DNA of 64,000 nt from Promethearchaeati archaeon (GCA_013166775.1 JABLTJ010000027.1:1-64000), one strand, 5' to 3'; shown: positions 7,331 through 63,872, counted from the first letter of the stretch. Program-made: numbers and translations. Notes: generated by a model not told the origin, from the sequence alone.

Positions 7331-10228
7331 CTAAGAGCTGTTTAGAACAGTTTTTAGATACTGACCTGTATAAGATTTAGCTACTTCAGCTACCTCTTCT
7401 GGTGTCCCTTCTGCAACTATCCACCCACCATCTTCTCCCCCCTCTGGTCCAAGATCTACCACATAATCAGCTTGTTTTACAACCTCTAAATTGTGTTCAA
7501 TAACCAAGACTGTGTTCCCTTCATCTACTAATCTGTTTATACAAAGCAACAGATTCTTAATATCATCTAAGTGCAAACCCACTGTTGGCTCATCAAGTAT
7601 GTAGAGATTATCTTTCAACCGTTTGATCTTCCCCAACTCTCGAGACAATTTTATCCTTTGTGCTTCCCCTCCACTAAGAGTAGTAGAAGATTGCCCTAGT
7701 TTTAGATACCCTAAACCTAATTCATTCATCGTTTTTAGTTTGTGGTGGATGAGTCTCACATCTTTGAAGAAAGTTATTCCTTCTTCCACGGTCATTTCTA
7801 ACACTTCAGCAATGTTCTTCCCATTGTATCGAAACTTTAAAGTTTCCTTGTTGAATCGTGCACCATTACACTCTGGACAAACAGAAACAACATCTTGCAT
7901 ATACTGTAATTCAGTTACTATTACACCCCATCCTCTACAGTGAAGGCATCTTCCTCCTTGATTATTGTTGAAACTGAATTGTTTAAGTTCATAACCACGA
8001 GCTATAGATTCTGGTAATTCACAAAATAGTTGTCGTATTTTATCATAGAATCCTACATAAGTTGCAGGATTAGATCGGGAAGTGCGTCCAATAGAAGACT
8101 GATCAATATTCCTGATATCTTTAATATTCTCATATCCTTCCATTTCTTCATGTTTCCCTGGAATGATTCTTTTATCCTTCAAGTAATAGTGTAATTTCTT
8201 GTATAGGATTTCACTCACTAAACTACTCTTACCAGAACCACTCACTCCAGTTATACAAATGAATTGACCAAGAGGAAGCTTAACATCTATGTTTTGCAAA
8301 TTATTCTCTTGAGCACCAAAAATGGAAAGATAGTGACCATTACTTTTTCTCCTTGAATCAGGGACAGTTATTTTCTTTTTTCCAGCTAAATATGCACCTG
8401 TCAAGGATTCTGTATTGTTTTTTATCTCTTCTACTGTTCCTTCGAAAGTTATCTCACCTCCATGAATTCCAGGTCCTGGACCTAATTCAATGAGATGATC
8501 TGCTGCTTCCATTGTTTCTGTATCATGCTCAACCACTATCACTGTATTTCCTAAATCACGCAACTTCTTCAGAACTTTAATCAGTTTATTCCCATCTTTT
8601 TGATGCAAACCAATTGAAGGTTCATCCAGAATATACATCATTCCCATTAACTCACTACCTATCTGTGTGGATAAAACAGTTCGTTGCATTTCCCCTCCAG
8701 ATAGTGTATCAGATCTTCGATGGAGAGTGAGATAATATAATCCTATCTCTAACATCAAATCTACCCGTTTGTTTAACTCTCGTAGAACAGGGTTACCGAG
8801 TTCAGTTTTCTTTTTAGGAATTGTTACTTTCTCTAAAAACTCCTTCAATCTTTTGAAAGGCATAGTTGAAATTTCGTGGATGTTTTTTCCATTTATCTTT
8901 ACTAATAATCTGCTTTTCTTCAGTTTCACTCCTTTGCAGTCAGGACATGTGTGTTCAACCATTAACCTAGTTTTGTGCCTGTTTTCTACTGATCCTGGGA
9001 TGTTTTGTTTAGACCAGTATTCTCTATACATTCTATTTACTCGACTGATGAGTCCAGAATATGGTAATTTCTTCCCTGTATCTCTAAATTCTTTTATAAA
9101 ATGATCTGGTGGTTGTTTTATCTCAATTTTTTCTCCTTTCGTGCCATCAAATAAAATATCTTTGATTTTCTCTTGTAAATCTTTGAAAGGAGTATCTAAA
9201 CTGAATCCATAATGTTGTGCAAGACTATAAGCGTACATATAGGTAGGATTATTAAATTTCTTGAAAGTTCGATTGTCCATGTTGAAGAATGAGTTATCAA
9301 GAGCTCCATCTCTCAAACTCAGATTCTCATCTACTATCAACAGTTGTCTTTCTGCTTGCAAGTAAGTTCCTAATCCTGAACAAGTAGGACAGGCACTTTC
9401 TGGATCATTAGCTGTAAAGTACCATGGGAGTAGTTCTCCAGTAACTGTATGATGTTCACAACATGTAATTTCATGATAAAATTCCTCAATATTTCCTTCT
9501 ACATTCTCAGGATTCAAGATTTCTAAAATAGCAAATTTCTGTCCTAGGAGAAATGCTGATTCAAGTGATTCTACTATCTGTTTATACAGATCTCCATTGA
9601 TAACGAACTTATCTATTATCGCTTCTATCTGATACTCTTTTTCTTCATCTAGTTCTACATCTTCACTAGTATCGACAATCTTTCCATCTACTCTGACTTT
9701 TCTATAACCTTGATTTCTTACTGTATCGAAAAGATATCTATAATTTTCATCATATACTTTAGTTACGATTGCACGGATTTCTATTGTTGTTTCTTTAGGG
9801 AGAGAGAGTATTTTATCTGCTATTTGATTAGAGGTTTTGATCTTTATTTCTTTGTCACAATAAGGACAATGAGCTGTTCCACCTATGGAATAAAGTAATC
9901 TTAGATAACTTCCTATATCAGTCAAAGAAGCTACTGTACTGCGTGGGTTGGCTATCCCTCTTCTTTGCTGAATACTTACTACAGGAGAAAGACCAAGTAT
10001 CATATTCACATCTGGTTTTTTCATAGTAGGTAATCTAGTCCTAGCCCAAGCTGTTAGTGATTCTAAAAATCTTCGATGTCCTTCACCAAAGAGGGTATCA
10101 AATACTAGGCTGCTTTTACCAGATCCACTTACACCTGTAACAACTGTGAATTTCTCTCTTGGTATCTTTACATTGATATTTCGAAGATTATTTTCTCTTG
10201 CTCCTATAATCTCAATATCTTTCTTCAT
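7331..10228 (-). CDS. uvrA: Excinuclease ABC subunit A (UvrA family)
   Basis: GARENNL, two GVSGSGKSS Walker A motifs, LSGGE signatures, ILDEP Walker B, NPRSTV, RSNPATY, zinc fingers, UvrB-binding insertion. Confidence 0.95.
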   Translation of the reverse strand: MKKDIEIIGARENNLRNINVKIPREKFTVVTGVSGSGKSSLVFDTLFGEGHRRFLESLTAWARTRLPTMKKPDVNMILGLSPVVSIQQRRGIANPRSTVASLTDIGSYLRLLYSIGGTAHCPYCDKEIKIKTSNQIADKILSLPKETTIEIRAIVTKVYDENYRYLFDTVRNQGYRKVRVDGKIVDTSEDVELDEEKEYQIEAIIDKFVINGDLYKQIVESLESAFLLGQKFAILEILNPENVEGNIEEFYHEITCCEHHTVTGELLPWYFTANDPESACPTCSGLGTYLQAERQLLIVDENLSLRDGALDNSFFNMDNRTFKKFNNPTYMYAYSLAQHYGFSLDTPFKDLQEKIKDILFDGTKGEKIEIKQPPDHFIKEFRDTGKKLPYSGLISRVNRMYREYWSKQNIPGSVENRHKTRLMVEHTCPDCKGVKLKKSRLLVKINGKNIHEISTMPFKRLKEFLEKVTIPKKKTELGNPVLRELNKRVDLMLEIGLYYLTLHRRSDTLSGGEMQRTVLSTQIGSELMGMMYILDEPSIGLHQKDGNKLIKVLKKLRDLGNTVIVVEHDTETMEAADHLIELGPGPGIHGGEITFEGTVEEIKNNTESLTGAYLAGKKKITVPDSRRKSNGHYLSIFGAQENNLQNIDVKLPLGQFICITGVSGSGKSSLVSEILYKKLHYYLKDKRIIPGKHEEMEGYENIKDIRNIDQSSIGRTSRSNPATYVGFYDKIRQLFCELPESIARGYELKQFSFNNNQGGRCLHCRGWGVIVTELQYMQDVVSVCPECNGARFNKETLKFRYNGKNIAEVLEMTVEEGITFFKDVRLIHHKLKTMNELGLGYLKLGQSSTTLSGGEAQRIKLSRELGKIKRLKDNLYILDEPTVGLHLDDIKNLLLCINRLVDEGNTVLVIEHNLEVVKQADYVVDLGPEGGEDGGWIVAEGTPEEVAEVAKSYTGQYLKTVLNSS

Positions 10229-11166
10229 TACTCATCTCCTCCTGTATAGGTATAAGCTATCTCATTTACCTGAATGAAGCTCTTAGATGTCAACCTTGCG
10301 GGTTGAGCAAATCTCTCCAAATATCCATACTGATGTAACCATTGACAGTAAGCTAAGGTTGCTACCTCCCACCAACTGGATTGCATCATCTTGTTCAGAT
10401 GAGTTGTAATATCCGTTATGCTTCTGACTTCTTGTTCTTCTCTGAAATAATCGATAATAATACTGAAAATAGATTCGGTTCTTTCCTCAAGATAAGTTCG
10501 GATTAATCTTATTATATCTTCCATTTTCACCTTATTTGTGGTTTCTAATATAACACTTGTAAAAATGGTATCAAAAAGCTCAGACTTGTATTTCATCGCT
10601 TGTTCTAAAACTTCCCTTTTTGGTACTTCTCCATTCAGTAATACTTCTATTTGTGCTAATCTATCAAGCAATCTTACAATAAACAGATAGCTTTGAGCAA
10701 CATCATTCTTCATTATTAGAAATTTTTCTGCCTTTTCTAAATCACCTATTACCATAGCTACTATTGTCAATATCTGCAATTCAACATCTCTTTTTCCTGG
10801 AGATTGTGCTTGTTGAATGTATTCGCTTATAGTTTCATCTTTAGAAAAAAGAATCTTGCTAGTATTGATCATGTGTTGAAACCATGAACCTGTTAATGAG
10901 CGCTCAAATTGTCTTTTGAAATTATTTCTCGAATATACAGATACTTGAAAATTTAAATCATCTTGATCTAACCAATAGAATCTGTATGGAACTTTTTCAT
11001 CATTACTTATTAAAAAGATATCAACATCCGATTTCTCCCAAACATTTCCTTCTATCAAGCTTCCAAAAAGCACTGCTGTAATTATATTTTTATCTTCTTT
11101 GATGAAATCAACAAATGTTTCAAGAGCTTCATCAAATCTTTTCTTTACATTTTTTTTCTCATTCAT
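10228..11166 (-). CDS. Pol-beta-family nucleotidyltransferase (YgxA/KNTase-like: NTase, helical domain, C-terminal wHTH)
   Basis: LFGSL..GNVWEKSDVDI (GS..DxD) motif; stop overlaps uvrA start (TAATG). Confidence 0.8.
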   Translation of the reverse strand: MNEKKNVKKRFDEALETFVDFIKEDKNIITAVLFGSLIEGNVWEKSDVDIFLISNDEKVPYRFYWLDQDDLNFQVSVYSRNNFKRQFERSLTGSWFQHMINTSKILFSKDETISEYIQQAQSPGKRDVELQILTIVAMVIGDLEKAEKFLIMKNDVAQSYLFIVRLLDRLAQIEVLLNGEVPKREVLEQAMKYKSELFDTIFTSVILETTNKVKMEDIIRLIRTYLEERTESIFSIIIDYFREEQEVRSITDITTHLNKMMQSSWWEVATLAYCQWLHQYGYLERFAQPARLTSKSFIQVNEIAYTYTGGDE

Positions 11167-11204
11167 TCTTGATTCCTCTTATTTTAAGACGATGTTGTTG
11201 CAAC

Positions 11205-11238
11205 GTATTGTTCGCGAGAAAAAATCTCACGAACATAC
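11205..11238 (-). promoter_or_regulatory. Stem-loop in leader of NTase-uvrA operon
   Basis: Minus strand GTAT-GTTCGTGAGA-TTTTT-TCTCGCGAAC-A-ATAC; the one mismatch is a G-U pair on the transcribed strand. Confidence 0.5.
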
Positions 11239-11343
11239 AAACCGGTTCAGAAAATAATTCTCTGATAGAATTATAAAATATGGTCGAAGAACTACTGTAT
11301 TCTGGTATTCCAGTTTTTATGAACAAGCGAATACTATCATCAT

Positions 11344-12042
11344 ATGGAAATGATTTTATATGGATTTTTTTCTTCTGTTTTGGAGTGGATTATCATAGTT
11401 CATGAGTTTTTTATTGCTTTGGGAATATCTTTTACAATGGTATTCACAGCAGAACTAGGTGATAAGACACAATTGTTTACTTTTCTATTAGGAACTTATT
11501 TTTCAGAAAGAAAATTATTGTTAGCTCTATCTGTTTTTACTGGGATGGGATTGGTTACACTTCTTGGAGTTGGTATAGCAAAACTCTTTCAACACTATCT
11601 AGAGATTTCCATTCTACAGATTATTGGTGGATCAGTATTTATTACCTTAGGTGTTTTAACTCTAGGAAAAGCAATCTATGATCGATTCAAAGATGAAGAA
11701 GATGAAGTGTGTGAGATTCCTGAAGAAGAGAAGACAGAAAAACGCATAATGAAGCTGCTGAAAACAAAGAATCCTTTTATTTTCGTTGGATTGTTAAGTA
11801 TTTTTTATATTTTGATGGAATTAGGAGATAAAAGCCAAATAATGATACTTATGTTACTTATTACAAATAATTGGGTAGGTGTTTTTATAGGAGCAATGAT
11901 TGCCTTTATGATTTTGAATGTATTAGGTATTTTTGCAGCTTCTTTTGTTAAAAAATTATGTGATAATAATCCATTAATAATGACTTTAATAACAGCATCA
12001 GTTTCTTTAGCATTAGGTTTATGGATGATTCTAACTAGATGA
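11344..12042 (+). CDS. GDT1/TMEM165 (UPF0016) Ca2+/Mn2+ transporter
   Basis: Two ELGDKT/SQ motifs, acidic central loop; true start may be downstream. Confidence 0.92.
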   Translation: MEMILYGFFSSVLEWIIIVHEFFIALGISFTMVFTAELGDKTQLFTFLLGTYFSERKLLLALSVFTGMGLVTLLGVGIAKLFQHYLEISILQIIGGSVFITLGVLTLGKAIYDRFKDEEDEVCEIPEEEKTEKRIMKLLKTKNPFIFVGLLSIFYILMELGDKSQIMILMLLITNNWVGVFIGAMIAFMILNVLGIFAASFVKKLCDNNPLIMTLITASVSLALGLWMILTR

Positions 12043-12103
12043 TATTATAATAACTCAACAGTCAGAAAATAATTTAAAAAAATGGTTTAATCTGGCAAAT
12101 CTG

Positions 12104-12529
12104 CTAATTAGCATCTTTTGCTTCTGATAAATGTTGCTGGCATATTCTCCAGCTTCCTTTTCGCTTTTCTAGAACTCCAGTCCATCTGATATTTTTAGAA
12201 CCCCATGGTTCTCCATCGAATTCTCCTTCATCGTCTACTATAGCAGAGAACCAAGATACATCTTTACTTTGTGAGATTACAATTCTTAGATTTCTTATTT
12301 CATATCCCTTAGCAATGTTTCGTGGATCCATCCATGAGTCCAAGAATTTTTCAAACTGATTCCAGCCTATGGCAGTACTCTTGGAGTCTGGAAAAATTGA
12401 GAAAAAATCATCATCATTTGCAAAGATACTTTCAAAGAGTGCTCTATCTTTGGTTAGAGCCCATCCAAAAGCATCATGGAGAATTTTGCTAATCTCTTGC
12501 TTAGCTTTAATCTCATTTGAAGTTGGCAA
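12104..12529 (-). CDS. SnoaL/NTF2-like protein
   Basis: DVSWFS..D..G....NIRWTGVLEKRKGSWRICQQHLS. Confidence 0.85.
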   Translation of the reverse strand: MPTSNEIKAKQEISKILHDAFGWALTKDRALFESIFANDDDFFSIFPDSKSTAIGWNQFEKFLDSWMDPRNIAKGYEIRNLRIVISQSKDVSWFSAIVDDEGEFDGEPWGSKNIRWTGVLEKRKGSWRICQQHLSEAKDAN

Positions 12530-12671
12530 ATCAAATCAACAAAGAATCTATTTCACAAACCATAATAAGAATTTTGTATTTGTGAAAAATTAATCATTAA
12601 ATGAAAGAGAATATCTACATGAAAAAAAATACACCCCTCATCTATGAAATAATCTAAATTTTTATACCAAA

Positions 12672-15086
12672 TTATTCATACAGAAGAGCTGAAACCACAT
12701 TGGTTTTTGATGCTCTAATTCCAGGATAGAGTGTACTTAATGTACCAACTATAAGGCCAATTGCTATTCCTATCAATATATCAAACGGTGATAAGATAAA
12801 ACTGCATAGTAAGTAAATATCTGATACTATTTTTACAATTAGCATTCCAAGAACAATTCCGAAAATGAAACTTCCAATAATACTAGCTATAACACCAATA
12901 AAAACACCTTCTATTAGAAAAGATGATGTAATCCAAGTTGGTTTTGAGCCTATAAGTTTCAGAAGGGAAATTTCTTTTTGTCTTTCTGATGCTGACATTA
13001 TGAAGGAATTCATTCCACCTAGAAATGATATAATAATCCCAAATACAATTACTATAGTAAAAATATTGAGCACAAAATTCATTTGGTCTTTAAATATATC
13101 TTTTATTTTTCCAATTCCATCAACATGCCAAGCTCTGGCAACTATTTCTTCATATTTCTTTAAATCACTAGTTATTTCTTCTTCTAAAGAGTTATCTTTA
13201 AGTTCAAGATAAACAGTATTTACAATGTTTGAATCACCACAAAAATCATTCATTGTACTCATTGGGATGTACATAATGTGACCATTTTGTTGTAGATCTT
13301 CGATTATTCCTACAATTGTAAAATTCCTAAATTGTTTGTTAGATTCCAATTCAATAGTTTTATGTAATCCATGATTCATCCCTGAGTGTTTTTCGATAAA
13401 GAGTCGTGTTACTACAATATTGCTAGTATTAGCATCGGCTGAAGTCAATAACCGACCTTCTACTAATCGATAAGATTCCAGAATAGAATCAGAGGGATAT
13501 ATTCCTAAAAGTGGAACATACATATGAATTCCCCAACTAGTATCATTATATCCTGCCCAGTACCATCTGATATAATGAATGGCTTTGAATTCATCAGTAT
13601 AATGAGTAGATGTATAACCATCAACAACATACTGAACTTCTGTCAAGTTTGTTTCTGGAAGATATAATGAGATATCAGTAGGTTGATTATCATACATTTC
13701 ATCAACACCTTTCAAGTAACTGTTTCTAGCAGCTGTAATTGAAACTACTAAAGCAATGGCCAAAGAAAGCATTAGAATATTCATGATTGATCTTTTCTTA
13801 TTTCTAAACAGATTTCTAAAACTGTATTTCCAAATCACAATCTTTTCCATTGCTTTGGTTTTATTTCTCTTAATCTTTAAAGGAGCATCTCTAAATGCTT
13901 CCATAGAGGTAATTTTTAAGGTTCGAAGGATTGTTGGTAATGCAAATATTACTGAAGTTGCTACAGGTATTACTATTCCTAATGCAATTGATAAAGGTGT
14001 AACCTTAAAGATAAAAGTGCTAACATTGAAAGGCGCTAATATCATTCTGATTAATAGCCTTGAAACTCCTAAAGATATCACGATTCCTAAAATAGCACCA
14101 AAAATGCCGAAAATTACTGCTTCTAAGAGATAAATAGAAAGAATATGTTTTTTTCTTCCTCCTATAACTTTTAGCAATGCAATATCTCCTTTTTCTGCAG
14201 CTACTGCCATTTGAATTGTATTAGCTGATAGTATTCCACCAGTAATTAAACTAAAAACACCCATCAAAGTTATAATAGCTCCTATTAGTCCAAGTAGCCA
14301 AGTTCTCCAATCTGTTTCTAGATTATAATAATTTGTTGCAAAAACATCTATCCCTTCATTAACTAGTGCCTTCTTTACTTTTTCAGATTCAACTGGTATA
14401 TTGTCTACATCGATTAGTTTCACGAATACACTAGTAACAACATCTTCTTTGCCAAGAAGTGTTTGAATTTGATCAATACTTATCCATATCTGTAAAATGG
14501 TTTCAAATGTATAGCTAGGAGAATAGACATTACGTGCATATCCAACTACCTTTAAGTCGATTGTATTTACAATTTCTTCTTCGTTCAAATACTTGAATTC
14601 TATAGTACTATTTAATTGGACATCAAATTCCTTAGCAGCAGAAAAATCTAACAGAATTTCATTTTTCCCTTCTTCAGGCAGCTCTCCTTCTACTAGAAAT
14701 ATCCCAGCGAGCGAAGTTAGACTTGCAATTCTTTCTATTTCAATACCTCGCAATTCTGAATTATGTATCTCTGAATTGATCTCGAACGAAGCAGAATATC
14801 GGAATGATGGTTCATAATCTTTTACTATTGGAACATTAGTCAAATAATCATCTTTCCAGATAGAAACAGTTTCATAATCAAATAGTATTTCAAAATCTGC
14901 ACTGTTTATACCATAGTCATACTCAGCTGATTCAAGTATGCTATCAGAAGTAATCATAAAACCAGTTATACTGAAAACACCGATCGCTAAACCAAATATT
15001 GTTAATATAGTTCTTAATTTCCTTTGATTAAAATCTCGCAAAATCTTAAGAAAAAGCAAATTCCTCACCTCATGACTGATTACCAT
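12672..15086 (-). CDS. ABC transporter permease (FtsX/MacB-like, duplicated)
   Basis: Two R.xLT..G.AIGV / ER..EI..LK.IG halves with extracytoplasmic domains; probable start GTG 15068. Confidence 0.92.
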   Translation of the reverse strand: MVISHEVRNLLFLKILRDFNQRKLRTILTIFGLAIGVFSITGFMITSDSILESAEYDYGINSADFEILFDYETVSIWKDDYLTNVPIVKDYEPSFRYSASFEINSEIHNSELRGIEIERIASLTSLAGIFLVEGELPEEGKNEILLDFSAAKEFDVQLNSTIEFKYLNEEEIVNTIDLKVVGYARNVYSPSYTFETILQIWISIDQIQTLLGKEDVVTSVFVKLIDVDNIPVESEKVKKALVNEGIDVFATNYYNLETDWRTWLLGLIGAIITLMGVFSLITGGILSANTIQMAVAAEKGDIALLKVIGGRKKHILSIYLLEAVIFGIFGAILGIVISLGVSRLLIRMILAPFNVSTFIFKVTPLSIALGIVIPVATSVIFALPTILRTLKITSMEAFRDAPLKIKRNKTKAMEKIVIWKYSFRNLFRNKKRSIMNILMLSLAIALVVSITAARNSYLKGVDEMYDNQPTDISLYLPETNLTEVQYVVDGYTSTHYTDEFKAIHYIRWYWAGYNDTSWGIHMYVPLLGIYPSDSILESYRLVEGRLLTSADANTSNIVVTRLFIEKHSGMNHGLHKTIELESNKQFRNFTIVGIIEDLQQNGHIMYIPMSTMNDFCGDSNIVNTVYLELKDNSLEEEITSDLKKYEEIVARAWHVDGIGKIKDIFKDQMNFVLNIFTIVIVFGIIISFLGGMNSFIMSASERQKEISLLKLIGSKPTWITSSFLIEGVFIGVIASIIGSFIFGIVLGMLIVKIVSDIYLLCSFILSPFDILIGIAIGLIVGTLSTLYPGIRASKTNVVSALLYE

Positions 15087-15843
15087 TTGATATGTGAGAG
15101 ATTATTTTTCCATCTTCGATTTCAATAATTTCTGTACAATAATCTAGAATTCTTGAATCATGACTCACCACAATAATGGTAATACCCTGTTCTAAATTTA
15201 ATTTTTTTAATAGTTCTAAAATTTCTCTTCCACTTGTACTATCTAAATTACCAGTAGGTTCATCTGCAAACAATATTTTAGGAGAATTAATTAATGCTCT
15301 CGCAATAGCAACTCTCTGCTTTTGTCCTCCTGATAATTGAGATGGTAGATGATTTACTCTGTTCTCCAATCCAACCAAAGAGAGTAATTCTAAGGCCTTA
15401 GCTTTTCTCACTTTGTCTTTAATCCCACCAAAATATCCTGCCATCATAACATTCTCTAGGACAGTTAAAGTTGGAAGAAGTCCGAAAAATTGCAACACAA
15501 AACCAACATTTCTTGCTCTAAATTCAGCTAATGAACTTTCCGTTTTTCCCAGAATAGTATAGTTATCAAGTTGTAATAATTGTTCTTCTTCTTTTGTTGG
15601 TTTATCTAAACCTGCTAATATATGTATTAAGGTAGATTTACCACTCCCTGATGGTCCTATAATAGCAACAAAAGAACCTGTTTGAATTTTTAGATCAATA
15701 TTTTGTAATGCAATTGTTTTAACGTGAGAATTATTATATACTTTTGAAAGATTCTGTGCTATAATAATTGCATCATCATTAATTGCAAATAAATCATTTT
15801 TTTGTTCAGTTCTTAACATTATTCTCGTCTCGTTATTATTCAA
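15070..15843 (-). CDS. ABC transporter ATP-binding protein (LolD/MacB-like)
   Basis: GPSGSGKST, LSGGQKQRVAIARAL, ADEPTGNLD. Confidence 0.95.
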   Translation of the reverse strand: MNNNETRIMLRTEQKNDLFAINDDAIIIAQNLSKVYNNSHVKTIALQNIDLKIQTGSFVAIIGPSGSGKSTLIHILAGLDKPTKEEEQLLQLDNYTILGKTESSLAEFRARNVGFVLQFFGLLPTLTVLENVMMAGYFGGIKDKVRKAKALELLSLVGLENRVNHLPSQLSGGQKQRVAIARALINSPKILFADEPTGNLDSTSGREILELLKKLNLEQGITIIVVSHDSRILDYCTEIIEIEDGKIISHISNGNQS

Positions 15844-16216
15844 AGTACGATATTCACAACAAGAGATAGCATTCAGAAACTTATAAATGCTCTCATTAGA
15901 TGAGAAAGATATATTATATTTTAAAATGATGTTCTCCTAAAAATAGAATGTTTTTAAGAACGCGCCTAAAGAGTTATGGATAAAGAGTAGAAAAATTGGA
16001 AAACAAGCTATTCCAAATATTTCGGATTTCCAAAATAAGGGTATTTTCAAACTAAAAGGAGATATTCGAAAATGATACCAGATTCAAGATACTGGAAAAT
16101 TATAAGCACAATATTTCTAGCTTTAATAATTGATTAGTTGGTTATACAATAATTGGGGTCATCTCGGATTTTGTAAAAAACGAGAATTTTTGAATTAAAA
16201 AAGCTCTACGTTAGTC

Positions 16217-16783
16217 ATGAAAAGGGGTTTGCTTTTTGTTTTAATATCAATAATATCTTTTTCTTCACTAAGTTCAGCTTCAACAATTTCTCATATGTTC
16301 ACTGCCGGATATGGTTCAGAATTTACATTAGAAGTTACAGTGGATAATATACAAACAGAACAGCAAGTAATCTATAATGTAACGATGAAGCTTCAAATTG
16401 ATAAATTTGGTTCCAGTGTGTCTAAAATAAACCAAGTCCGTTTATATGCAAAAATATTGGGAGAAACTTATCAGACAACCAGCTACAAGCAAGGTGAAGA
16501 AGATATACTAAAGTCACCTGGTTCTTCAAAGAGTGTAAATGCTAGCTTTTTATTTGATATAACAAACGTTACAGAAGAAGTCATAATCTACAGTGCTGCA
16601 TCATTAAACGAGTATCTCTTTGAAGATACTTTCAAAACCACATGTACTGTTTGGTTTAACGAACAAACAATAACAATGGAGCCAACGATGGAAACAAGTT
16701 ACATAGGTTATTTAACCATTGTATTTGCTATTAGCTTGTTAATAATCGTTAGATTTCATAAAAAAGAAAAGAAGAGAAGATAG
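16217..16783 (+). CDS. Secreted beta-rich protein with C-terminal TM anchor and basic tail
   Basis: Signal peptide; C-terminal YIGYLTIVFAISLLIIVRFHKKEKKRR. Confidence 0.8.
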   Translation: MKRGLLFVLISIISFSSLSSASTISHMFTAGYGSEFTLEVTVDNIQTEQQVIYNVTMKLQIDKFGSSVSKINQVRLYAKILGETYQTTSYKQGEEDILKSPGSSKSVNASFLFDITNVTEEVIIYSAASLNEYLFEDTFKTTCTVWFNEQTITMEPTMETSYIGYLTIVFAISLLIIVRFHKKEKKRR

Positions 16784-48103: not shown

Positions 48104-48925
48104 ATGGGTTCTAAGAAAAGAGATGAGGAAGTAGTTTTGATTACTGGTGCTACTGGTGGGATAGGTACTGTTACAGCTAATCTTTTACATAACAATGGAT
48201 ACAAAGTTTATGGTACTACTCGGAATCTAAATAGTGCTCCAAAAACATCATTTAAACTTCTACAGCTTGATGTAACAGAAGATACTTCAGTAAAAGGATG
48301 TATTGAGGAAATTATATCTAAGGAAGGAAAGATCGATGTTCTAATCAATAATGCAAGTTTCTCATTATGTGGTTCGGTAACTTATCTTTCAGCCAAAGAT
48401 TTTCAAGCACAATTTGAGACAAATTTCTTTGGTGTTCATAGAATGATTTCAGAAGTTCTTCCAGGGATGTTAGAAAGAGAGGAAGGGAAAATCATCAATA
48501 TTGGTACGCTAGGTGGAAGAGCTGCAATGCCTTTTCAAGCTCCATATAGTTCAACAAAAGCAGCATTAGCAATTTACACTGATACAATCAGGATGGAATT
48601 ACAAACAAAGGGAATTAAAGTTTCATTAGTTGAACCTGGAGATATCAAAACTGATTTTCAAGCTGGAAGAAAATTCGCTAAAGGGTACGAGAATGATTTA
48701 GTAGCTCAGCAAGTAGTTGATTTGTATCATGAAAATGAAAGGAAAGGAACACCTCCAAAAAGAGTAGCAAAGAAGATTCATAAGATTATAAGAAAGAACA
48801 ATCCAAAACCAAGATATCTAGTGGGATTAATGCAAACATTCCTAGTAGGATTTCTCTTTAGATTACTTCCAATTTCCGTACAAGTATGGGGATTAATGTG
48901 GTACTTTAAAATTCCCAGAAACTGA
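48104..48925 (+). CDS. SDR oxidoreductase, candidate 3-ketodihydrosphingosine reductase
   Basis: ITGATGGIG, VYGTTR, LINNA, ETNFFG, YSSTK, VEPGDIKT; adjacent to SPT-type gene. Confidence 0.85.
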   Translation: MGSKKRDEEVVLITGATGGIGTVTANLLHNNGYKVYGTTRNLNSAPKTSFKLLQLDVTEDTSVKGCIEEIISKEGKIDVLINNASFSLCGSVTYLSAKDFQAQFETNFFGVHRMISEVLPGMLEREEGKIINIGTLGGRAAMPFQAPYSSTKAALAIYTDTIRMELQTKGIKVSLVEPGDIKTDFQAGRKFAKGYENDLVAQQVVDLYHENERKGTPPKRVAKKIHKIIRKNNPKPRYLVGLMQTFLVGFLFRLLPISVQVWGLMWYFKIPRN

Positions 48926-49032
48926 AAAGTAAAACATGAACCCTCATATTTTGCTTTTTCATCGTCTCATCTGAAATCTTTATAAAAAACCTCTTAGATT
49001 CATCAATCTAACTTCAATATGCCTAAATTGCA

Positions 49033-50256
49033 ATGGTGGAGAAAATGTCTAAATTCTTTAAAAAATGTAATCGGTATTATCGTTTTGGAGAACCAACTAT
49101 AGCCAAAAATCTTGGTATTTACCCTTATTTTCATCGTATTCATGGAGAGCAAAATCCTATTGTGCAAATGGATGATAAAGATATTATCATGCTGGGGAGT
49201 AATAATTACCTTGGTATGACTTCTCATCCCCAAGTTAAACAAGCAGCAAAAGATGCAATTGATGTATATGGGGTAGGTTCAACAGGGTCTAGATTACTCA
49301 ACGGAACCATGGATATTCACATTGAATTAGAAGAGAGATTAGCTAAATTCATGGGAACAGATGATTGTGTAGTTTTTTCAACAGGAATGCAAGCTAATCT
49401 TGGAGCTATCTCAGCGTTGCTTTCAGAAAAGGATGAATGGATCATCTCAGATCAACAAAATCATGCGTCTATAATCGATGGTATTCGTCTTGGAAGAAAT
49501 AATCCAAAAAACAAAAAAATCTACGATCATTGTAATATGGACTCATTAGCTAAATGTTTGAAAGATACACCAAAAGGTAAAGCTCTAATTGTTACTGATG
49601 GTGTTTTTTCGATGGAAGGAGATCTAGCTAAAATGAATGAAATAATGGATTTAGCTGAAGATCGTGATGCTGGTGTATACATAGATGATGCTCACGCTGT
49701 TGGAGTTATTGGTCCTCATGGGAAAGGTACAGCTGCTCATTTTGATATGGTTGATAAAGTTCATCTAACAATGGGTACTTTTTCCAAAAGTTTTGCAACA
49801 GTGGGAGGTTTTGTTGCTGCAAATGAGCAAATCTGCAATTGGCTAAGGCACAAGGCTAGATCTTTTATATTCTCAGCTAGTCCACCTCCAGCTACATGTG
49901 CTACTGTTTTAGCAATTTTAGATATCATAGAGAAAGATGATTCCTATAGGCAAAAACTTCTAGCAATAGGAGATAAAATGAGAAAAGGATTAACTGATAT
50001 AGGCTTTGATACTGGTAATTCAGTTACACCAATAATCCCACTAGTTGTTGGAGAGACTCGTCGGACAGTTAAATTTTTCAAGAAGCTGTTTGAACACAAA
50101 CCTAGAGGGATTTTTACTAACCCTGTAGTTCATCCTGCTACTCCAAAAGGAAGAGAATTAATCCGTACATCATACATAGCTACTATGACGGATGAAGTAA
50201 CCTCAGAAGCTCTGGATATTTTCGAAGTAGCTGGAAAGGACATGAAGTTGATTTAG
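49033..50256 (+). CDS. spt: PLP-dependent alpha-oxoamine synthase, serine palmitoyltransferase-type
   Basis: IYPYF, GSNNYLG, GSRLLNGT, NHASIIDG, DGVFSMEGD, DDAH, GTFSKS, FIFSAS.PP. Confidence 0.75.
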   Translation: MVEKMSKFFKKCNRYYRFGEPTIAKNLGIYPYFHRIHGEQNPIVQMDDKDIIMLGSNNYLGMTSHPQVKQAAKDAIDVYGVGSTGSRLLNGTMDIHIELEERLAKFMGTDDCVVFSTGMQANLGAISALLSEKDEWIISDQQNHASIIDGIRLGRNNPKNKKIYDHCNMDSLAKCLKDTPKGKALIVTDGVFSMEGDLAKMNEIMDLAEDRDAGVYIDDAHAVGVIGPHGKGTAAHFDMVDKVHLTMGTFSKSFATVGGFVAANEQICNWLRHKARSFIFSASPPPATCATVLAILDIIEKDDSYRQKLLAIGDKMRKGLTDIGFDTGNSVTPIIPLVVGETRRTVKFFKKLFEHKPRGIFTNPVVHPATPKGRELIRTSYIATMTDEVTSEALDIFEVAGKDMKLI

Positions 50257-57882: not shown

Positions 57883-58869
57883 TCATGCATATTTATCTGG
57901 TAAATGAACAATAAAACTGCATTTTTCATCTCCTTTGAGTACAGAATCAATTACATCTACTCTAACTGGTTGGTTTAAGATGGAATCCCACTGTTGTTTA
58001 TAATAACCAGCACTGCAATAGCAGAACATAGCTGAAATGTCCATATCTCCTTTCTTTATAGAATCTCTAATCCAGGGACAATGACAATAATAATAGCTCT
58101 TCATTTTAGGATCTTTCTCAAGTAAATACTCTTTAGTCAAAAAGGGGATTTTAGTTATGATAACTTTATCTCCTTCACGTTTTCCTGACTCAATCGTCTG
58201 ATCTTTACTTACATAATCAATTACAGACTCATCAACTTCCTGTGTGTAAAATTTAGTTCCTTCTTCAAGATTCTTTGTGAGATTAGCAATAAGTCTCTGA
58301 TGCTTTTGAAAAAGAAAATCATCAAGATTTTCAGCAGCAAGGAATTGAGCCCGAAGCCTTTGCAAAGTTCCAGAACCAATGATGTGAATACCACTAGAAA
58401 GAATTTCTTTGCATTTCTCACAAGGAAGATTTTCTTCAAGGTTATCAATAATCTTCTTGGTGAAAAAAGGTTTATCTTCATGTGGTGTCCTTAAAGGAGG
58501 AAGTTCAAATCCTTCCATGGTTCTGTTGAAAGTTTCTTTGTCAACACTCTGTTGTAATTTTTCAACCAAAGTGTCTAAAACCTTAGCACCATCAAGGATA
58601 TCATAGAGGAAAAGAGTCAAATCCTCTCTTTTAGCAAAAAGGGAATAGCGAACCACAGCAGCTAGATTATCCCAAGAATCTTTTTTATTTTCAGTTAAAT
58701 TACTGATAAAGAAATCCAAATCTTCAACTGTGCATTTGTCTAATCCGTTCTTTTCTTTTTCAGTATTCAATAATGATCTAAATTCCCTTAATAAAGAGAG
58801 ATTTTGCTCAATATCCTCTGTTTTTGTTTTTAGTTTTGTACAGTATTCCACAAAAGAAAGTTCGTCCAT
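57883..58869 (-). CDS. DUF6144-like Cys-motif protein
   Basis: YYCHCPW, FCYCSAGY..PVRVDV..SVLKGD..C.F.VHLP. Confidence 0.8.
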   Translation of the reverse strand: MDELSFVEYCTKLKTKTEDIEQNLSLLREFRSLLNTEKEKNGLDKCTVEDLDFFISNLTENKKDSWDNLAAVVRYSLFAKREDLTLFLYDILDGAKVLDTLVEKLQQSVDKETFNRTMEGFELPPLRTPHEDKPFFTKKIIDNLEENLPCEKCKEILSSGIHIIGSGTLQRLRAQFLAAENLDDFLFQKHQRLIANLTKNLEEGTKFYTQEVDESVIDYVSKDQTIESGKREGDKVIITKIPFLTKEYLLEKDPKMKSYYYCHCPWIRDSIKKGDMDISAMFCYCSAGYYKQQWDSILNQPVRVDVIDSVLKGDEKCSFIVHLPDKYA

Positions 58870-59213: not shown

Positions 59214-62195
59214 ATGATTCCACTTATTGTTCTCTTCAGTTTTTTTTCTTATTTATATGGTTCTATTCCTTTTGCTCTTTTCTTTACCTATGTTTTAACT
59301 AAAAAGAATTTACTTCATGAAGGAACAGGCAATGTGGGTGTTATTAATACCTTTAGAACCGGAGGAACTTTAGCAGGTTTATTAACTGTAATAGGAGAAA
59401 TTTCTAAAGCATTTGTACCATTAGTAATATCATTCTTTCTTTTCGAGAAACAATTGGGTGCATCATTCTTTAATTTCGAGGATGAGCGCTGGATAAGCTT
59501 AATGTACTTATTTTTGACTCTTCTTGGAATAAACTTTTCAATTTTTCTAAGATTTAGAGGAGGGCATGGCTCTACAATGACTTTTTTCTCTACTTTAATC
59601 TTGTCCCCCTTTTCAGCTTTAACTCTACTAGGTATAAACACTATCTTACACTTTTTATCAAGATATGATTTTAGAATAAAGAGATTATGGATTTTATTTA
59701 TCCCTGCGATAATCTATGCATTTGAAAGAAGTAGCATATATGCCTCATTTGGTGCTGCTACTGCGCTATTATTCTTAATTCAAAGTGGAGAAAGTAGAGA
59801 TGATTATGTTAGACACTTCGAAGAATATGAAATGAGTAAGAGAAAAAAACTATCAATAAGATTTCACAAATTATCTTTTTATAAACGTGTACCTTTTATT
59901 GGGAATAAGGCAAATAATCTTGAATTTTTGATATCACAGAAAGTGAAAGTTCCTACAACTTATGCTTTGGATTGGTATATGTGTTCCAAACTCGTCGATT
60001 CAGATAGTGAGATAAAGGAGAAAATTATAATATCAATACAAAAAAGAATTTCACCAACAAAATCCTATGCAATACGTTCTTCTGCTTCAATAGAGGATGA
60101 TCCTGAATTCTCATTTGCTGGACAATTCAAAACTATACTAAATGTTCAAGGAATTGATAAAATCATAAATGCAATTGAAGAAGTCTATAATTCAAAGAAA
60201 AGTAAAAACGTGCAGAAATATATCACCAAATCTAATTTGAAATATGAAAATCTCAGAATGGCTGTTATTGTCCAAGAAATGGTTAATCAAATTTTTTCTG
60301 GCGTAAGTTTCGGAAAAAATCCAATTACGGGATTAGATGAAGTCGTAATTGAAGCAGTTGAAGGGAGCGGACAATTATTATTACAGGATGGGATTACACC
60401 CTTTCACTGTGTCTATAAATGGGGGGAGATACTTACAGAATCTAAAGAAAATCCAATCCCTGTTGAAATTATTCAAATAATTGCTGAAGAGACATTGAGA
60501 ATTCAGAAAAAATATAAAAAACCTGTAGATCTCGAATGGGTTTATGATGGAAAAGAAATAAACTGGGTGCAGGTAAGACCTATATCAACATTTATAGGAT
60601 TGAATATTTATTCAAATAAGTTTTCTAAAGAATTTTTACCAGGTGTTATCAAGCCATTAATCTTTTCCATAAATATTCTTCTCATTAATTCTACTTGGAT
60701 TGATATATTAACTGAATTAATTGGAAAAAATGATTTGGATCCGTATCTGCTAGCTAAATTATTTTATTACCGAGCATATTTTAATATAGGAAAGTTTGGT
60801 CAAATATTCGAAACAGTAGGTTTTCCTAGAGAGTTGTTGGAAATTCTTGTTCTTTCCGAAGGTGAAAATAAGAAGCCTAAGTTCAAAATTACTTTCAAAA
60901 CGCTTAGACATTTACCTAGAGTTGTAAAATTTTTGATTAATAAGTTATTTTTCTTTGAAAAGAGAATTAATAGGGACTTAATCTTGTTAATGAATGAATT
61001 CGAAAAATTTGAAAATGAAAGACTTGATAATGAAACACCAAGTAAGCTTCTAATAATTATTAAGGAATTATTTGAACTAAATAGAAAAATTGCATACTTT
61101 AGTATTATTATTCCTCTTCTTAATTTCTTCTTTAATAATAGACTAACAAGAAAATTAAAGAAATATAAGCTTACTATGGAAAGTTTAAACTATCTACTTA
61201 ATTCTGAGCAAAATCTATCTGATTTCAATCCACATCTTCATTTAGAAGAACTTCATACTGAATTTAAGAACTTACCAGACAATATAAAAACTGAAATAAG
61301 AAAAGGGTCATTTGAGCAATTTCTAGAAATACCAGAAATTACGGTTTTTAAAAAGAATGTTCTGAATTTTATTGATAGATTTGGTCATCTAAGTGATAGT
61401 GGAAATGATTTTTCACTCATACACTGGAGAGAGAAACCAAAACTAATTCTTGAAATGATAATTAATTACACACTCCCAAAGAGCAAGATTGCAGATTCAG
61501 AAATTTTACCTATAAGAAAAATAAAAGGAAAAACCTTAGTGAAAAAAATTAAACGGTATAGATATTATAAAGAACAGATTAGTTTTGAATATACATATAG
61601 TTACAGTCTTTTTAGATCATATTTCTCTGCCTTAGCAAAACAATTTGTTCAAAGAGGAATATTTCAAGAAGAAAATGACATCTACTATCTAACGTTTGAG
61701 GAAATAATTGAAATAATTGAAAAGGATTTATGGAGAGAAAGTAGGCAAGAACAAGTAGATAGAATTAAGAAAGAAATAGAGAAATATAGCGATATTAAAG
61801 CACCAGCAACTATTTATGGAGATAATCCCCCTCCAATTACTTTAGATACGAAAATATATCATAAATACATAGGAACACCTTCTTCTCCTGGTTACTATTT
61901 AGGTCAAATTACTAAAGTAAAAAGCATTGATGAGTTTAACAAAATTCAAGATGGAGATGTTTTAGTTATTCCCTATTCTGATGTTTCTTGGACTCCTATC
62001 TTCTCGAAAGCTGGAGCTGTTATATCAGAAGCAGGAGGTATGCTTTCTCACTGTTCTATTATAGCTAGAGAATATCAAATCCCAGCTGTGGTTTCAGTTG
62101 ATGGAATTTTTCAGCTAAACGATGGTGATACTGTATCTGTTGATGGTTATAAAGGAGAAGTGAGTTTAGTAAAGAGGATTTCTAAAGACCACTGA
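59214..62195 (+). CDS. PlsY-like acyltransferase fused to PEP-synthase/rifampicin-phosphotransferase-like dikinase
   Basis: YLYGSIPF..GTGNVGVINTFR..F.GGHG; GNKANNL, AIRSSASIED..SFAGQF, VQEMV, DLEW..QVRPI; GGMLSHCSIIAREYQIPAV phospho-His domain. Confidence 0.88.
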   Translation: MIPLIVLFSFFSYLYGSIPFALFFTYVLTKKNLLHEGTGNVGVINTFRTGGTLAGLLTVIGEISKAFVPLVISFFLFEKQLGASFFNFEDERWISLMYLFLTLLGINFSIFLRFRGGHGSTMTFFSTLILSPFSALTLLGINTILHFLSRYDFRIKRLWILFIPAIIYAFERSSIYASFGAATALLFLIQSGESRDDYVRHFEEYEMSKRKKLSIRFHKLSFYKRVPFIGNKANNLEFLISQKVKVPTTYALDWYMCSKLVDSDSEIKEKIIISIQKRISPTKSYAIRSSASIEDDPEFSFAGQFKTILNVQGIDKIINAIEEVYNSKKSKNVQKYITKSNLKYENLRMAVIVQEMVNQIFSGVSFGKNPITGLDEVVIEAVEGSGQLLLQDGITPFHCVYKWGEILTESKENPIPVEIIQIIAEETLRIQKKYKKPVDLEWVYDGKEINWVQVRPISTFIGLNIYSNKFSKEFLPGVIKPLIFSINILLINSTWIDILTELIGKNDLDPYLLAKLFYYRAYFNIGKFGQIFETVGFPRELLEILVLSEGENKKPKFKITFKTLRHLPRVVKFLINKLFFFEKRINRDLILLMNEFEKFENERLDNETPSKLLIIIKELFELNRKIAYFSIIIPLLNFFFNNRLTRKLKKYKLTMESLNYLLNSEQNLSDFNPHLHLEELHTEFKNLPDNIKTEIRKGSFEQFLEIPEITVFKKNVLNFIDRFGHLSDSGNDFSLIHWREKPKLILEMIINYTLPKSKIADSEILPIRKIKGKTLVKKIKRYRYYKEQISFEYTYSYSLFRSYFSALAKQFVQRGIFQEENDIYYLTFEEIIEIIEKDLWRESRQEQVDRIKKEIEKYSDIKAPATIYGDNPPPITLDTKIYHKYIGTPSSPGYYLGQITKVKSIDEFNKIQDGDVLVIPYSDVSWTPIFSKAGAVISEAGGMLSHCSIIAREYQIPAVVSVDGIFQLNDGDTVSVDGYKGEVSLVKRISKDH

Positions 62196-63872
62196 TTGTG
62201 GAAGAACAAGCCATAGAAGAAGAAAAGCTAATATAAACGCTGTTAAAAAATCATTTCTTGATATTTTATTTAAAAGAATCCCAAAAAGAACAATAAAACC
62301 TAAAATAATTGAGATTTCAAAGATACTGATTATTATCCCAATGAAACCAAAGATTAATGCAAGTATAATTACAATTAGGATTAAACTAAGAATAATTCCG
62401 ATGAATCCAAGCAAATTCATGAAAAATCTCTCTTTATCTTTGGATATCATTTTTAATTGTTTTATGCTTATATAGAAACCAATTGAACTGAAAGGAGTGA
62501 GAATGACTAGCCAAAGGATTTTCCTAATAGGAAAGAAGAACCATAATCCTGTCTGAGTAAAAAAACTGATAAAAATAAGAATGACCAGAAAAACACTTAA
62601 AATTAATCCAAGATTCTTGAAATCTATTTTATTAGGTTTTTTAAAAATCGTATCTATTTGCCATTCTCCTTTAATCCCAATCATTTTACCTTTCCAGTAG
62701 AATAATAACTCTGTTATTCCAAGTCCAAAGAAAAAACCAGTGTAGCTTATCGCTAATAAAGGTAAATCCATTCCAAAAATAAGAAATAACATAGAGATTA
62801 AAATCATGATAGGAATAGACAAAAGAAATGTGATCGTCTTAGCTAGGAAAAACTTGTTTGCTTTTTGAATCTCAAAATTAAAACTATCCTTAGGTTTCTG
62901 ATTGTAAAGTTTCTTGTTATTCAACAGACTGCTACATAAGATAAAAAATGTATAAAATCCGATTATTATCATTAACCAGCTTATATTTCTCCATTTAGTT
63001 ATTGATATATAATTAACTTCTTCCAGATCCAGACCAAAAAAATTTGTAGCTCTTTCTAATGCAGTCTGAATTATCTTAGAAGAATAAATCTCATAATTGT
63101 GAAAAACTCTTTCGAAGAAGATTAATTCTCTAGATAGGTTGTTAGCACCCATATAATAAGATCCAACACTGGAATAACTATCATTGATCAATTTCTCATA
63201 TAAGAGAATAGCTCCTTTAGGGGGAAGAACATCATCCCAAATCCCGGTGAGTATCGTGATATTTGTTTTTGGGTTATTTGTTCCAAGATTTATTATCCAA
63301 TCTAATTCAAGATCTGAAACACCTGTAAAAACATCTACTTTGTTTTCAATATCTAAATTGATCTGAGCGCCTATTAGTATTAAACCAGCAACAGCTAAAG
63401 AATCAAAAGTTTGTTCTTGAAGAGCAATTCTTGCCCCATAACTCTGACCAATTAATACAATCTGAGAATCATTTAAACCAGTAAGTGATTTAAATACTCC
63501 TTTAACTTGCTGTATCTGTTGAGCTTGTATATCTGTTGCAGTGTTATTAAAATCTACAAATCCAGAACTTCTTCCATGTCCAGAATAATCAAAAGTTAAA
63601 ACATGAAAACCTTGAAGATTGAATTCCATTACAATACTTTTTATAGAAATCTGGTCACTGCTAAAACCTTGCATTACTATAACTCCGAAAGGAATAGAAC
63701 CTGAATAATAGGTGCAAACAATAGTATCTTGACTTTTTTCATCAATTATTTCAAAGGTTTCCTTATCACTGATTTTAACTTCAAAAGACAATAATAAAGC
63801 AAAAAATGAGAGTATCAATAATAAACTAACAACCATGAAAAATAGGTTGATAACTCGTCGTTTATTTTTCAT
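62166..63872 (-). CDS. Membrane alpha/beta hydrolase (N-terminal anchor plus multi-TM C-terminus)
   Basis: FDYSGHGRS, GQSYG nucleophile elbow, WDDVLP, FHNYE. Confidence 0.85.
   Translation of the reverse strand: MKNKRRVINLFFMVVSLLLILSFFALLLSFEVKISDKETFEIIDEKSQDTIVCTYYSGSIPFGVIVMQGFSSDQISIKSIVMEFNLQGFHVLTFDYSGHGRSSGFVDFNNTATDIQAQQIQQVKGVFKSLTGLNDSQIVLIGQSYGARIALQEQTFDSLAVAGLILIGAQINLDIENKVDVFTGVSDLELDWIINLGTNNPKTNITILTGIWDDVLPPKGAILLYEKLINDSYSSVGSYYMGANNLSRELIFFERVFHNYEIYSSKIIQTALERATNFFGLDLEEVNYISITKWRNISWLMIIIGFYTFFILCSSLLNNKKLYNQKPKDSFNFEIQKANKFFLAKTITFLLSIPIMILISMLFLIFGMDLPLLAISYTGFFFGLGITELLFYWKGKMIGIKGEWQIDTIFKKPNKIDFKNLGLILSVFLVILIFISFFTQTGLWFFFPIRKILWLVILTPFSSIGFYISIKQLKMISKDKERFFMNLLGFIGIILSLILIVIILALIFGFIGIIISIFEISIILGFIVLFGILLNKISRNDFLTAFILAFLLLWLVLPQSVVFRNPLY

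Follow-up and report, generated by a model that had tools for sequence, protein, structure and literature searches.

The stretch analyzed here, 64,000 nucleotides of a Promethearchaeati archaeon, an Asgard archaeon of the Heimdall group (GCA_013166775.1, JABLTJ010000027.1:1-64000; "the window" in what follows), carries near its 3′ end a gene, P0001, that joins in one reading frame a membrane domain derived from the acyltransferase PlsY and a dikinase of the rifampicin phosphotransferase (RPH) type. The architecture combines two known kinds of enzymes; we found no paper on a PlsY/dikinase fusion or pair with this architecture in the literature. The fusion is a solitary member of a so far unstudied pair of enzymes, present in many bacteria and archaea, which probably acts on a membrane lipid. 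The gene and its parts, all on the plus strand, are as follows (aaPlsY, the Aquifex PlsY; RPH-Lm, the RPH of structures 5FBS/5FBT/5FBU and 5HV1).

59214..62195 (+), whole fusion gene P0001, 993 aa; a single open reading frame with three Pfam domains
59214..59798 (+), PlsY-derived membrane domain, aa 1-195, of the F-type (fused-type) subfamily; from PF02660 and Foldseek
59322..59357 (+), remnant of PlsY motif 1, G37-T-G-N-V-G-V-I-N-T-F-R48; from the alignment to aaPlsY
59550..59576 (+), Loop 3 "phosphate hole", R113-F-R-G-G-H-G-S-T121; from the alignments
59799..59897 (+), basic linker, aa 196-228; from K/R content and model confidence
59898..60593 (+), ATP-grasp (PPDK_N) nucleotide-binding domain, aa 229-460; from Pfam and the RPH-Lm alignment
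60594..61853 (+), helical middle (acceptor-binding) domain, aa 461-880; from the full-length Foldseek match to RPH-Lm
61569..61574 (+), K786-E787, counterpart of R666-E667 in RPH-Lm; from alignment and conservation
61854..62192 (+), phospho-His swivel domain, aa 881-993; from PF00391 (74.7 bits) and the alignment to the RPH-Lm swivel
62049..62051 (+), codon of His946, the predicted phospho-carrier (His825 in RPH-Lm); invariant in 37 sequences

The succession of a PlsY domain, an ATP-grasp domain, a helical domain, and a C-terminal swivel, the last three in the order of rifampicin phosphotransferase, had been read in the original prediction made on this DNA and is recovered with Pfam, with the alignment to RPH-Lm, and with Foldseek. 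Pfam at E ≤ 1 gives three families only: G3P_acyltransf (PF02660) at aa 12-188 with 88.9 bits (cut-off 24.1), PPDK_N with 129 bits, and PEP-utilizers at aa 911-981 with 74.7 bits. The phosphoenolpyruvate (PEP)/pyruvate barrel (PF02896) is absent, and the swivel domain is C-terminal, not central as in PEP synthase (PEPS) or PPDK. In sequence alignments, the N-terminal 205 residues match Aquifex PlsY (5xj5) and the remainder matches RPH-Lm (5fbs, E 8e-38). The AlphaFold2 model, built from 37 sequences (pLDDT 82.5, pTM 0.68), finds with Foldseek RPH-Lm (5hv1) over about 900 columns (E 7e-32) and the PlsY structures 5xj5-5xj8 with TM-scores of 0.62-0.67 (0.67 for 5xj7). The linker, which follows hydrophobic helices, is partly of low confidence in that model; 10 K/R residues occur within aa 196-235. 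The equivalog models of NCBIfam are matched far below their cut-offs: 63.5 bits against 137.2 for PlsY (TIGR00023), 190 against 999 for RPH (NF041857 RIF_Ptrans_rph), 167-236 against 598-945 for the PEPS models, and 162-167 against 1300-1350 for the prodiginine ligases PigC and RedH.

The fusion is one real gene. The fused frame is present in the Ca. Heimdallarchaeota metagenome-assembled genome YT1_048 and in a congener (G020), with 93% identity. The junction between the domains (about 59800-59900) is spanned by Logan contigs that come from three runs of a single marine-sediment study (possibly the same source DNA) and by a Logan contig of about 93% identity from a separate study. At least 34 fused homologs occur in metagenomes, with 38-41% identity and an unchanged architecture of about 1000 residues. 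The congener copy, the contig of the other study, and these homologs exclude the assembly artifact that the original prediction had named as a possible undoing. Between the two Heimdall copies, the ratio of nonsynonymous to synonymous substitution rates (dN/dS) is 0.20 overall and 0.24 in the kinase part; with a value of 0.10, the PlsY-like domain is under purifying selection.

In aaPlsY, the phosphate of glycerol-3-phosphate (G3P) is clamped by S35, R45, K104, and N180, and the 2-OH is contacted by S142 and H177. Acyl-phosphate is bound by just two side chains, those of T41 and H92, in addition to the backbone of Loop 3, which makes a membrane-embedded "phosphate hole"; N37 is proposed to stabilize the oxyanion during acyl transfer, and the S35T variant retains 17% of the activity (PMC5700162). 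In the fusion (HMMER alignment to 5xj5 and family alignments), H92 is replaced by I106 (GH into GI, within GINF), K104 by H118 (GGKG into GGHG), and DxxKG by EISKA (with E62 and K65), and motif 3 (HxxNxxR, with H177 and N180 in aaPlsY) is absent, all as first described. In addition, S35 is replaced by T38 and T41 by I44. Residues N37, N42, and R45 are retained as N40, N45, and R48.

When 1.84 billion representative proteins are searched with a profile of the PlsY-like domain, only 40 clusters reach E ≤ 1e-30. In 23 domains of the F-type, the mean column identity is 42% and 13 positions are invariant (P19, A21, G42, N45, G51, E62, K65, S109, F111, G116, G117, G119, and T121); these fall in helix 1, in the motif 1 loop, and in Loop 3. 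Across the subfamily, the G3P clamp (S35, R45, K104, and N180) and H177 are not conserved, nor are the equivalents of T41 and H92; the GGxG loop is invariant. The PlsY-like part has lost its G3P pocket and kept the buried phosphate-binding loop. With the G3P site gone, G3P is improbable as acceptor, in line with the acceptor other than G3P that had been proposed. The fusion is not to be taken for an ordinary PlsY.

The PlsY-derived partners of these dikinases form two lineages, the F-type (fused or split) and an A-type encoded by an adjacent gene. The A-type, which most of the unfused relatives carry, forms a clade with 41 of 41 members (SH-aLRT 100). Its members have GHNWP and GGRG (GH and GG being invariant), but where motif 1 begins an insertion has taken the place of GSGN, and with it of N37. 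The two lineages share the GGxG loop and a D/E-x-x-K pair. Motif 1 begins with GSGN in the F-type alone, H92 occurs in the A-type alone, and motif 3 is found in neither. This pattern speaks both against a pure anchor and against unchanged PlsY chemistry.

That the PlsY-like part is a mere membrane anchor, placing a kinase for a soluble substrate at the membrane, would agree with the loss of the canonical side chains for G3P and acyl-phosphate. It would agree also with the dikinases of this clade being mostly, in the samples taken, separate proteins of about 780 residues with no membrane helices of their own (85 of 120 among the matches listed and 42 of the 53 rows in the tree below). Such a role appears quite improbable, however, as the 13 F-type invariants sit in active-site loops of PlsY and not in generic hydrophobic helices, dN/dS is low in this very domain, and unfused relatives keep an adjacent PlsY-like gene with GHNWP and GGRG, which an anchor does not need. 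The catalytically dead anchor that had been foreseen as a counter-case finds little room beside the invariants and the dN/dS value.

In the dikinase part, His946 is invariant in 37 relatives, fused and unfused, and the ATP-grasp columns are common to the clade of the fusion and to the RPH-like clade. The pair K786-E787 is R-E in most relatives; in RPH-Lm, R666-E667 is needed for the second phosphotransfer (PMC4844700). Judged by these residues, the relay from ATP through phosphohistidine to the acceptor is intact. In a tree of 89 dikinase domains, the fusion is placed outside the RPH-like clade, in a clade associated with PlsY, the split being supported by SH-aLRT values of 98-100. The RPH-like clade (36 rows, largely Actinomycetota) has a PlsY-like neighbor in none of its rows, whereas 42 of the 53 rows in the clade of the fusion have a PlsY-like gene, either fused to the dikinase or immediately beside it; among the 11 rows without such a partner, several are short contigs or broken frames. 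The functional coupling of the two parts, supposed from this one gene, is thereby strengthened. The Heimdall branch is long and groups apart from the other Asgard sequences.

The block aa 466-543, at the start of the acceptor domain and in the region of the residues that contact rifampin in RPH-Lm, is strongly conserved across phyla in the clade of the fusion and different in the RPH-like clade. Such clade-specific conservation suggests that a single acceptor is shared by all, from Asgard archaea through to bacteria of the candidate phyla radiation (CPR). We define here as PlsY-associated pairs the members of this clade that carry the aa 466-543 signature and have a PlsY-derived partner; the fusion has both. 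Some relatives bear in databases names like "pyruvate, water dikinase" or "phosphoenolpyruvate synthase", which would suggest an ordinary PEP synthase or PPDK, or else a true rifampin phosphotransferase, fused by accident. This is hardly credible: the PEP/pyruvate-binding domain is absent, the scores with the PEPS, RPH, and PigC models are far under the cut-offs, the clade is separate from its largely actinomycetal RPH-like sister, and the fusion is conserved and under selection. A pyruvate or rifamycin kinase, also listed at the outset as an outcome that would count against the proposal, is very unlikely by sequence.

Among characterized proteins, RPH-Lm (PMC4844700) has the same order of ATP-grasp, helical acceptor, and C-terminal His-swivel domains, with H825 for H946 and R666-E667 for K786-E787, but the fusion adds an N-terminal membrane domain with the PlsY fold, belongs to a separate clade, and has its own aa 466-543 block. 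With Aquifex PlsY (5XJ5-5XJ9; PMC5700162), the fusion has in common the fold, the GSIPFA of helix 1, the equivalents of N37 and N42 in the motif 1 loop, the D/E-x-x-K, and the GGxG of Loop 3; it differs by the S35 to T, T41 to I, H92 to I, and K104 to H replacements, by the missing motif 3, and by the kinase of 790 residues attached. HpeHI (PDB 9GOJ), described in PMC12167813 as a two-component kinase that starts hydroxyphenylethanone catabolism, has a subunit, HpeI, that matches the ATP-grasp part of the fusion in sequence and fold. HpeHI and phenylphosphate synthase, a comparable two-component kinase, differ from the fusion in that their substrates are soluble aromatic compounds, that a membrane partner is lacking, and that their subunits are organized differently. 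The ligases of the PigC/RedH/HapC group share the three-domain layout, deal with hydrophobic substrates at the membrane, and use phosphorylation to activate a carbonyl for condensation. The models named in NCBIfam for PigC (prodigiosin ligase) and RedH (undecylprodigiosin ligase) both match the fusion, but no pigment pathway genes are found near it and its partner domain is a PlsY-derived membrane protein.

We favor, with a probability of about 0.42, a dikinase for membrane lipids in which the domain derived from PlsY would bind the lipid together with its phosphate, the acceptor being neither pyruvate nor a rifamycin. The ATP-grasp domain would bind ATP, and His946 would take the β-phosphate with release of AMP and Pi, as the intact conserved residues suggest. 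The swivel domain would then bring the phosphate on His946 to a cleft in the helical domain, at K786-E787. The PlsY-like domain, which would no longer acylate G3P, may offer a lipid groove for the tail, with the buried site at Loop 3 holding the phosphorylated head group. The product would be the phosphate of a common membrane lipid bearing a hydroxyl or carboxyl group, for example polyprenol or another lipid alcohol. A stable lipid phosphate is preferred because the features common to the two partner lineages include no residue specific for acyl transfer, because both side-chain ligands of acyl-phosphate are gone in the fused type, and because the characterized relatives of this layout phosphorylate a hydroxyl or carbonyl oxygen. 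Those known to act on an oxygen of hydrophobic molecules are RPH (PMC4844700), HpeHI (PMC12167813), and PigC/RedH (by their NCBIfam names).

Three points weigh against such a lipid dikinase. The F-type keeps N40, equivalent to the oxyanion residue N37, together with the motif 1 loop, and a holder of head groups does not obviously need them. The hand-over of a labile intermediate would explain the obligate fusion or adjacency more naturally. And the idea of a polyprenol comes from a single neighborhood, in Lokiarchaeota, where genes for GtrA, UbiA, and GT87 proteins lie just upstream of the pair. These families are usually tied to sugars linked to polyprenyl phosphate.

The first two points lead to the chemistry that had been proposed originally, in which the dikinase would make acyl-phosphate from a free fatty acid with no need of PlsX or FakA, and the PlsY domain would acylate with it an acceptor other than G3P (for example a lysolipid or another alcohol or amine), with release of Pi. 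Phosphorylation serves in PigC and RedH as activation for a condensation, and their NCBIfam models match the fusion, if far below the cut-offs. To our knowledge, however, no His-swivel dikinase phosphorylates a carboxylate. Acyl transfer from acyl-phosphate is the sole known chemistry of PlsY (PMC5700162); the F-type keeps N40, T38, Loop 3, and, in this protein, R48; and fusion or adjacency in 42 of the 53 loci suits the channeling of a labile intermediate. On the other hand, T41 and H92 are replaced (I44 and I106) and unconserved in the subfamily, the A-type partners have no GSGN start of motif 1 with its N37, and the conserved neighbors (ABC exporters, chelatase-like and HupE-like proteins) include no genes of fatty-acid or glycerolipid metabolism. 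We regard this route as a serious, though less likely, rival. The wider proposal that a single polypeptide both activates fatty acids and transfers them to an acceptor other than G3P, as an ester-lipid or remodeling route in an Asgard archaeon, CPR bacteria, and cyanobacteria, is slightly less likely still. FakA/FakB and PlsX, the suppliers of acyl-phosphate to PlsY, would be functional analogs if acyl-phosphate were the product, in that a kinase with a lipid-holding partner would feed a PlsY-type site, but they belong to unrelated protein families. FakA is a Dak2-type kinase with direct transfer of the γ-phosphate.

The lipid genes of the carrier genomes bear on the same question. The genome of the window (88.7% complete) has five PF02660 matches: one with all catalytic residues checked, two without motif 3, one truncated fragment, and the fusion. 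The canonical PlsY lies outside the window on contig C73:6539-7249 (locus L018), where GSGNMGATNVMR, GH, FKGGKS, and HKANLKR are kept, and a DegV/FakB gene follows 1.8 kb downstream (C73:9041-9922). The two variant paralogs (C80:29037-29789 and C93:24355-25098, minus strand) have motifs 1 and 2 intact (GS[GK]NVGGRNV, GHNW, and GG[KR]G) but carry SRQxxNFxKIKxGE in place of motif 3, so that the equivalents of H177 and N180 are missing. There are 15 DegV genes of the fatty-acid-binding FakB type (for example at C102:65448, C44:47893, C62:16775, and C1:243624) and two stand-alone Dak2 proteins of about 220 residues (C1:227256-227735 and C75:189268-189765). At this completeness, we did not find a full-length FakA, PlsX, or PlsC, nor a PF01884 match (GGGP synthase/PcrB), a gene that may be divergent or unassembled.

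A genome with neither PlsX nor a full-length FakA, and yet with a canonical PlsY and 15 DegV proteins, could make use of another source of acyl-phosphate. But the fusion occurs in only two of 25 genomes of the genus and is therefore no general acyl-phosphate source for the canonical PlsY. In the complete 1.1-Mb chromosome of a Ca. Saccharibacteria (G399), the fusion (L040:9983-12919) is the only PF02660 gene, and PlsX, PlsC, DegV, and a canonical PlsY were not found; a role in lipid salvage would be conceivable there. Chloroflexota and Acidimicrobiia carriers have in addition a normal PlsX/PlsY/PlsC set. The presence of the fusion in G399, with none of PlsY, PlsX, PlsC, and DegV, indicates an enzyme independent of the phosphatidic-acid pathway, and the dikinase/PlsY-like pair appears to be an add-on to it. 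Of the acyl-phosphate generator and acyltransferase first proposed, the architecture, the lost G3P site, and the coupling of the parts stand. The specific chemistry, from fatty acid to acyl-phosphate to acyl transfer, is disfavored by the replaced T41 and H92, the A-type partners without GSGN, the neighbors that are not fatty-acid genes, and the canonical PlsY and 15 DegV proteins already present.

Elsewhere, the commonest neighbors of the pair are an ABC ATPase (19 loci) and a MacB_PCD/FtsX permease (at least 17 loci), then a chelatase-fold membrane protein (13 loci), HlyD (8), DUF6512 (6), and a HupE/UreJ-type protein (6). The order ABC-FtsX-dikinase-PlsY-like, or fusion-FtsX-ABC, is found in all nine of the other Asgard loci read, and ABC-FtsX-dikinase-PlsY-like operons occur also in many Chloroflexota. 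For the lipid dikinase favored here, the MacB-type ABC transporter of the same operon probably handles the product in most relatives, including those nine Asgard loci. In the present genome, no MacB_PCD/FtsX permease or ABC ATPase adjoins the fusion, and genome-wide the orthologous FtsX partner was not found (best score 130 bits vs. 485-719 for true partners), nor were the HupE_UreJ_2 and long ferrochelatase-like partners. In the window itself, 44 kb away from the fusion, a double MacB_PCD/FtsX permease of 809 residues with an adjacent ABC ATPase is encoded at 12675-15936 (minus strand). It is the best match of the genome (231 bits) to the large permeases beside bacterial dikinase pairs and is not orthologous to the Asgard partner permease (98 bits vs. 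485-719).

MacB/FtsX-type ABC systems often serve in the efflux of antimicrobials. Being the most frequent neighbors, they would fit a resistance or detoxification function, in which the PlsY-like domain would bind a toxic compound that inserts into the membrane (a lipophilic antibiotic, for instance, or a lipopeptide), the kinase would phosphorylate it, and in relatives the pump would expel it. RPH is itself an antibiotic-inactivating kinase (PMC4844700), and the spread of the gene is very patchy and transfer-like (the genus has it in two of 25 genomes and the phylum in about 15 of 399, and its branch in the tree is long and isolated). We consider this improbable: the acceptor domain is unusually conserved (40-45% identity between phyla, archaea and CPR bacteria included) and so suits a universal lipid better than a particular antibiotic, no recurrent regulator or other resistance gene is found among the neighbors, and the present copy has no pump.

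The chelatase-fold protein beside the pair (L070:13116-14333; L040:12984-14213, minus strand; L061:2656-3891, minus strand; and 10 further loci) is found in 13 bacterial loci, including one of a Saccharibacteria genome. It is membrane-anchored, with several predicted N-terminal transmembrane (TM) helices, and has the very conserved motifs THGEP, SNHTAEGE, and GHGQPDEWD. The fused forms in L022, L150, and L151 are accompanied by a separate, longer ferrochelatase-like gene and a HupE_UreJ_2 gene. A chelatase-like partner for the present fusion was considered and rejected: the sole match in the genome, a ferrochelatase/CbiX-like gene, lies on a contig of 1674 bp (C41; L122), shows 95% identity to a gene from G089, which belongs to a different Asgard family lacking the dikinase, and is absent from the genus of the present genome. 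That contig is probably a binning contaminant.

The fusion gene is monocistronic, with a divergent gene upstream and a convergent α/β-hydrolase gene that overlaps its 3′ end by 30 bp. The latter (62166-63872, minus strand) encodes 568 residues with an N-terminal α/β-hydrolase (Hydrolase_4) and a long multi-TM tail, and is patchy in Asgard archaea (28 of 399 genomes). A link between the two genes is not retained, for the hydrolase stands beside the fusion only here and in G020 and is on other contigs in G130 and G131. The upstream gene (57883-58869, minus strand) has a weak DUF6144 match at its C terminus. Its family has three copies in this genome and one to four in 23 of 24 congeners, with 33-40% identity; since the family is multi-copy and the relatives so distant, no boundary of an insertion site can be defined with it. 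Around the fusion no flanking repeat pair was found, only short AT-rich matches of 66-90% identity, and the idea of a repeat-bounded module was abandoned. Farther away in the window, at 48104-50256 (plus strand), Pfam finds a short-chain dehydrogenase followed by an aminotransferase of the α-oxoamine synthase type (Aminotran_1_2, 187 bits), a pair of the kind seen in sphingoid-base synthesis.

Of 399 Asgard genomes, about 15 have a true ortholog; within the genus, two of 25 genomes do, this one included. With this rarity and its long isolated branch, the Heimdall copy looks like a solitary accessory gene that was horizontally acquired. The pair, usually with a MacB-type transporter, is nevertheless conserved in at least ten bacterial phyla and in several archaeal groups (Asgard lineages, Bathyarchaeota, and Methanomassiliicoccaceae). 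Fusions occur also on cyanobacterium-like contigs, so that the uncharacterized fusions mentioned at first for cyanobacteria do exist, there and in other phyla. The architecture search and the taxonomic survey suggested with the original prediction thus yield at least 34 fused homologs and a pair of wide distribution. As a cultured organism, Ornatilinea apprima P3M-1, carries the pair, it is directly testable. There the genes form an operon of four (locus L037): the PlsY-like gene (9812-10525), the dikinase (10534-12912), an ABC ATPase (12909-13661), and an FtsX permease (13703-16288).

In work on the "lipid divide", plsY genes from metagenomes of Asgard archaea are taken to point to lipid synthesis of the bacterial type (PMC6431249, PMC13400652). 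Simple counts of PF02660 domains overstate PlsY function, since only one of the five matches in the present genome has all the catalytic residues checked. Were fatty-acid activation the true function, the fusion would provide an undescribed ester-lipid or remodeling route, and its dikinase would be the first of the His-swivel type with a carboxylate as demonstrated acceptor. Whichever chemistry applies, the identity of the substrate would add either a new step of lipid phosphorylation or a new way of making acyl-phosphate.

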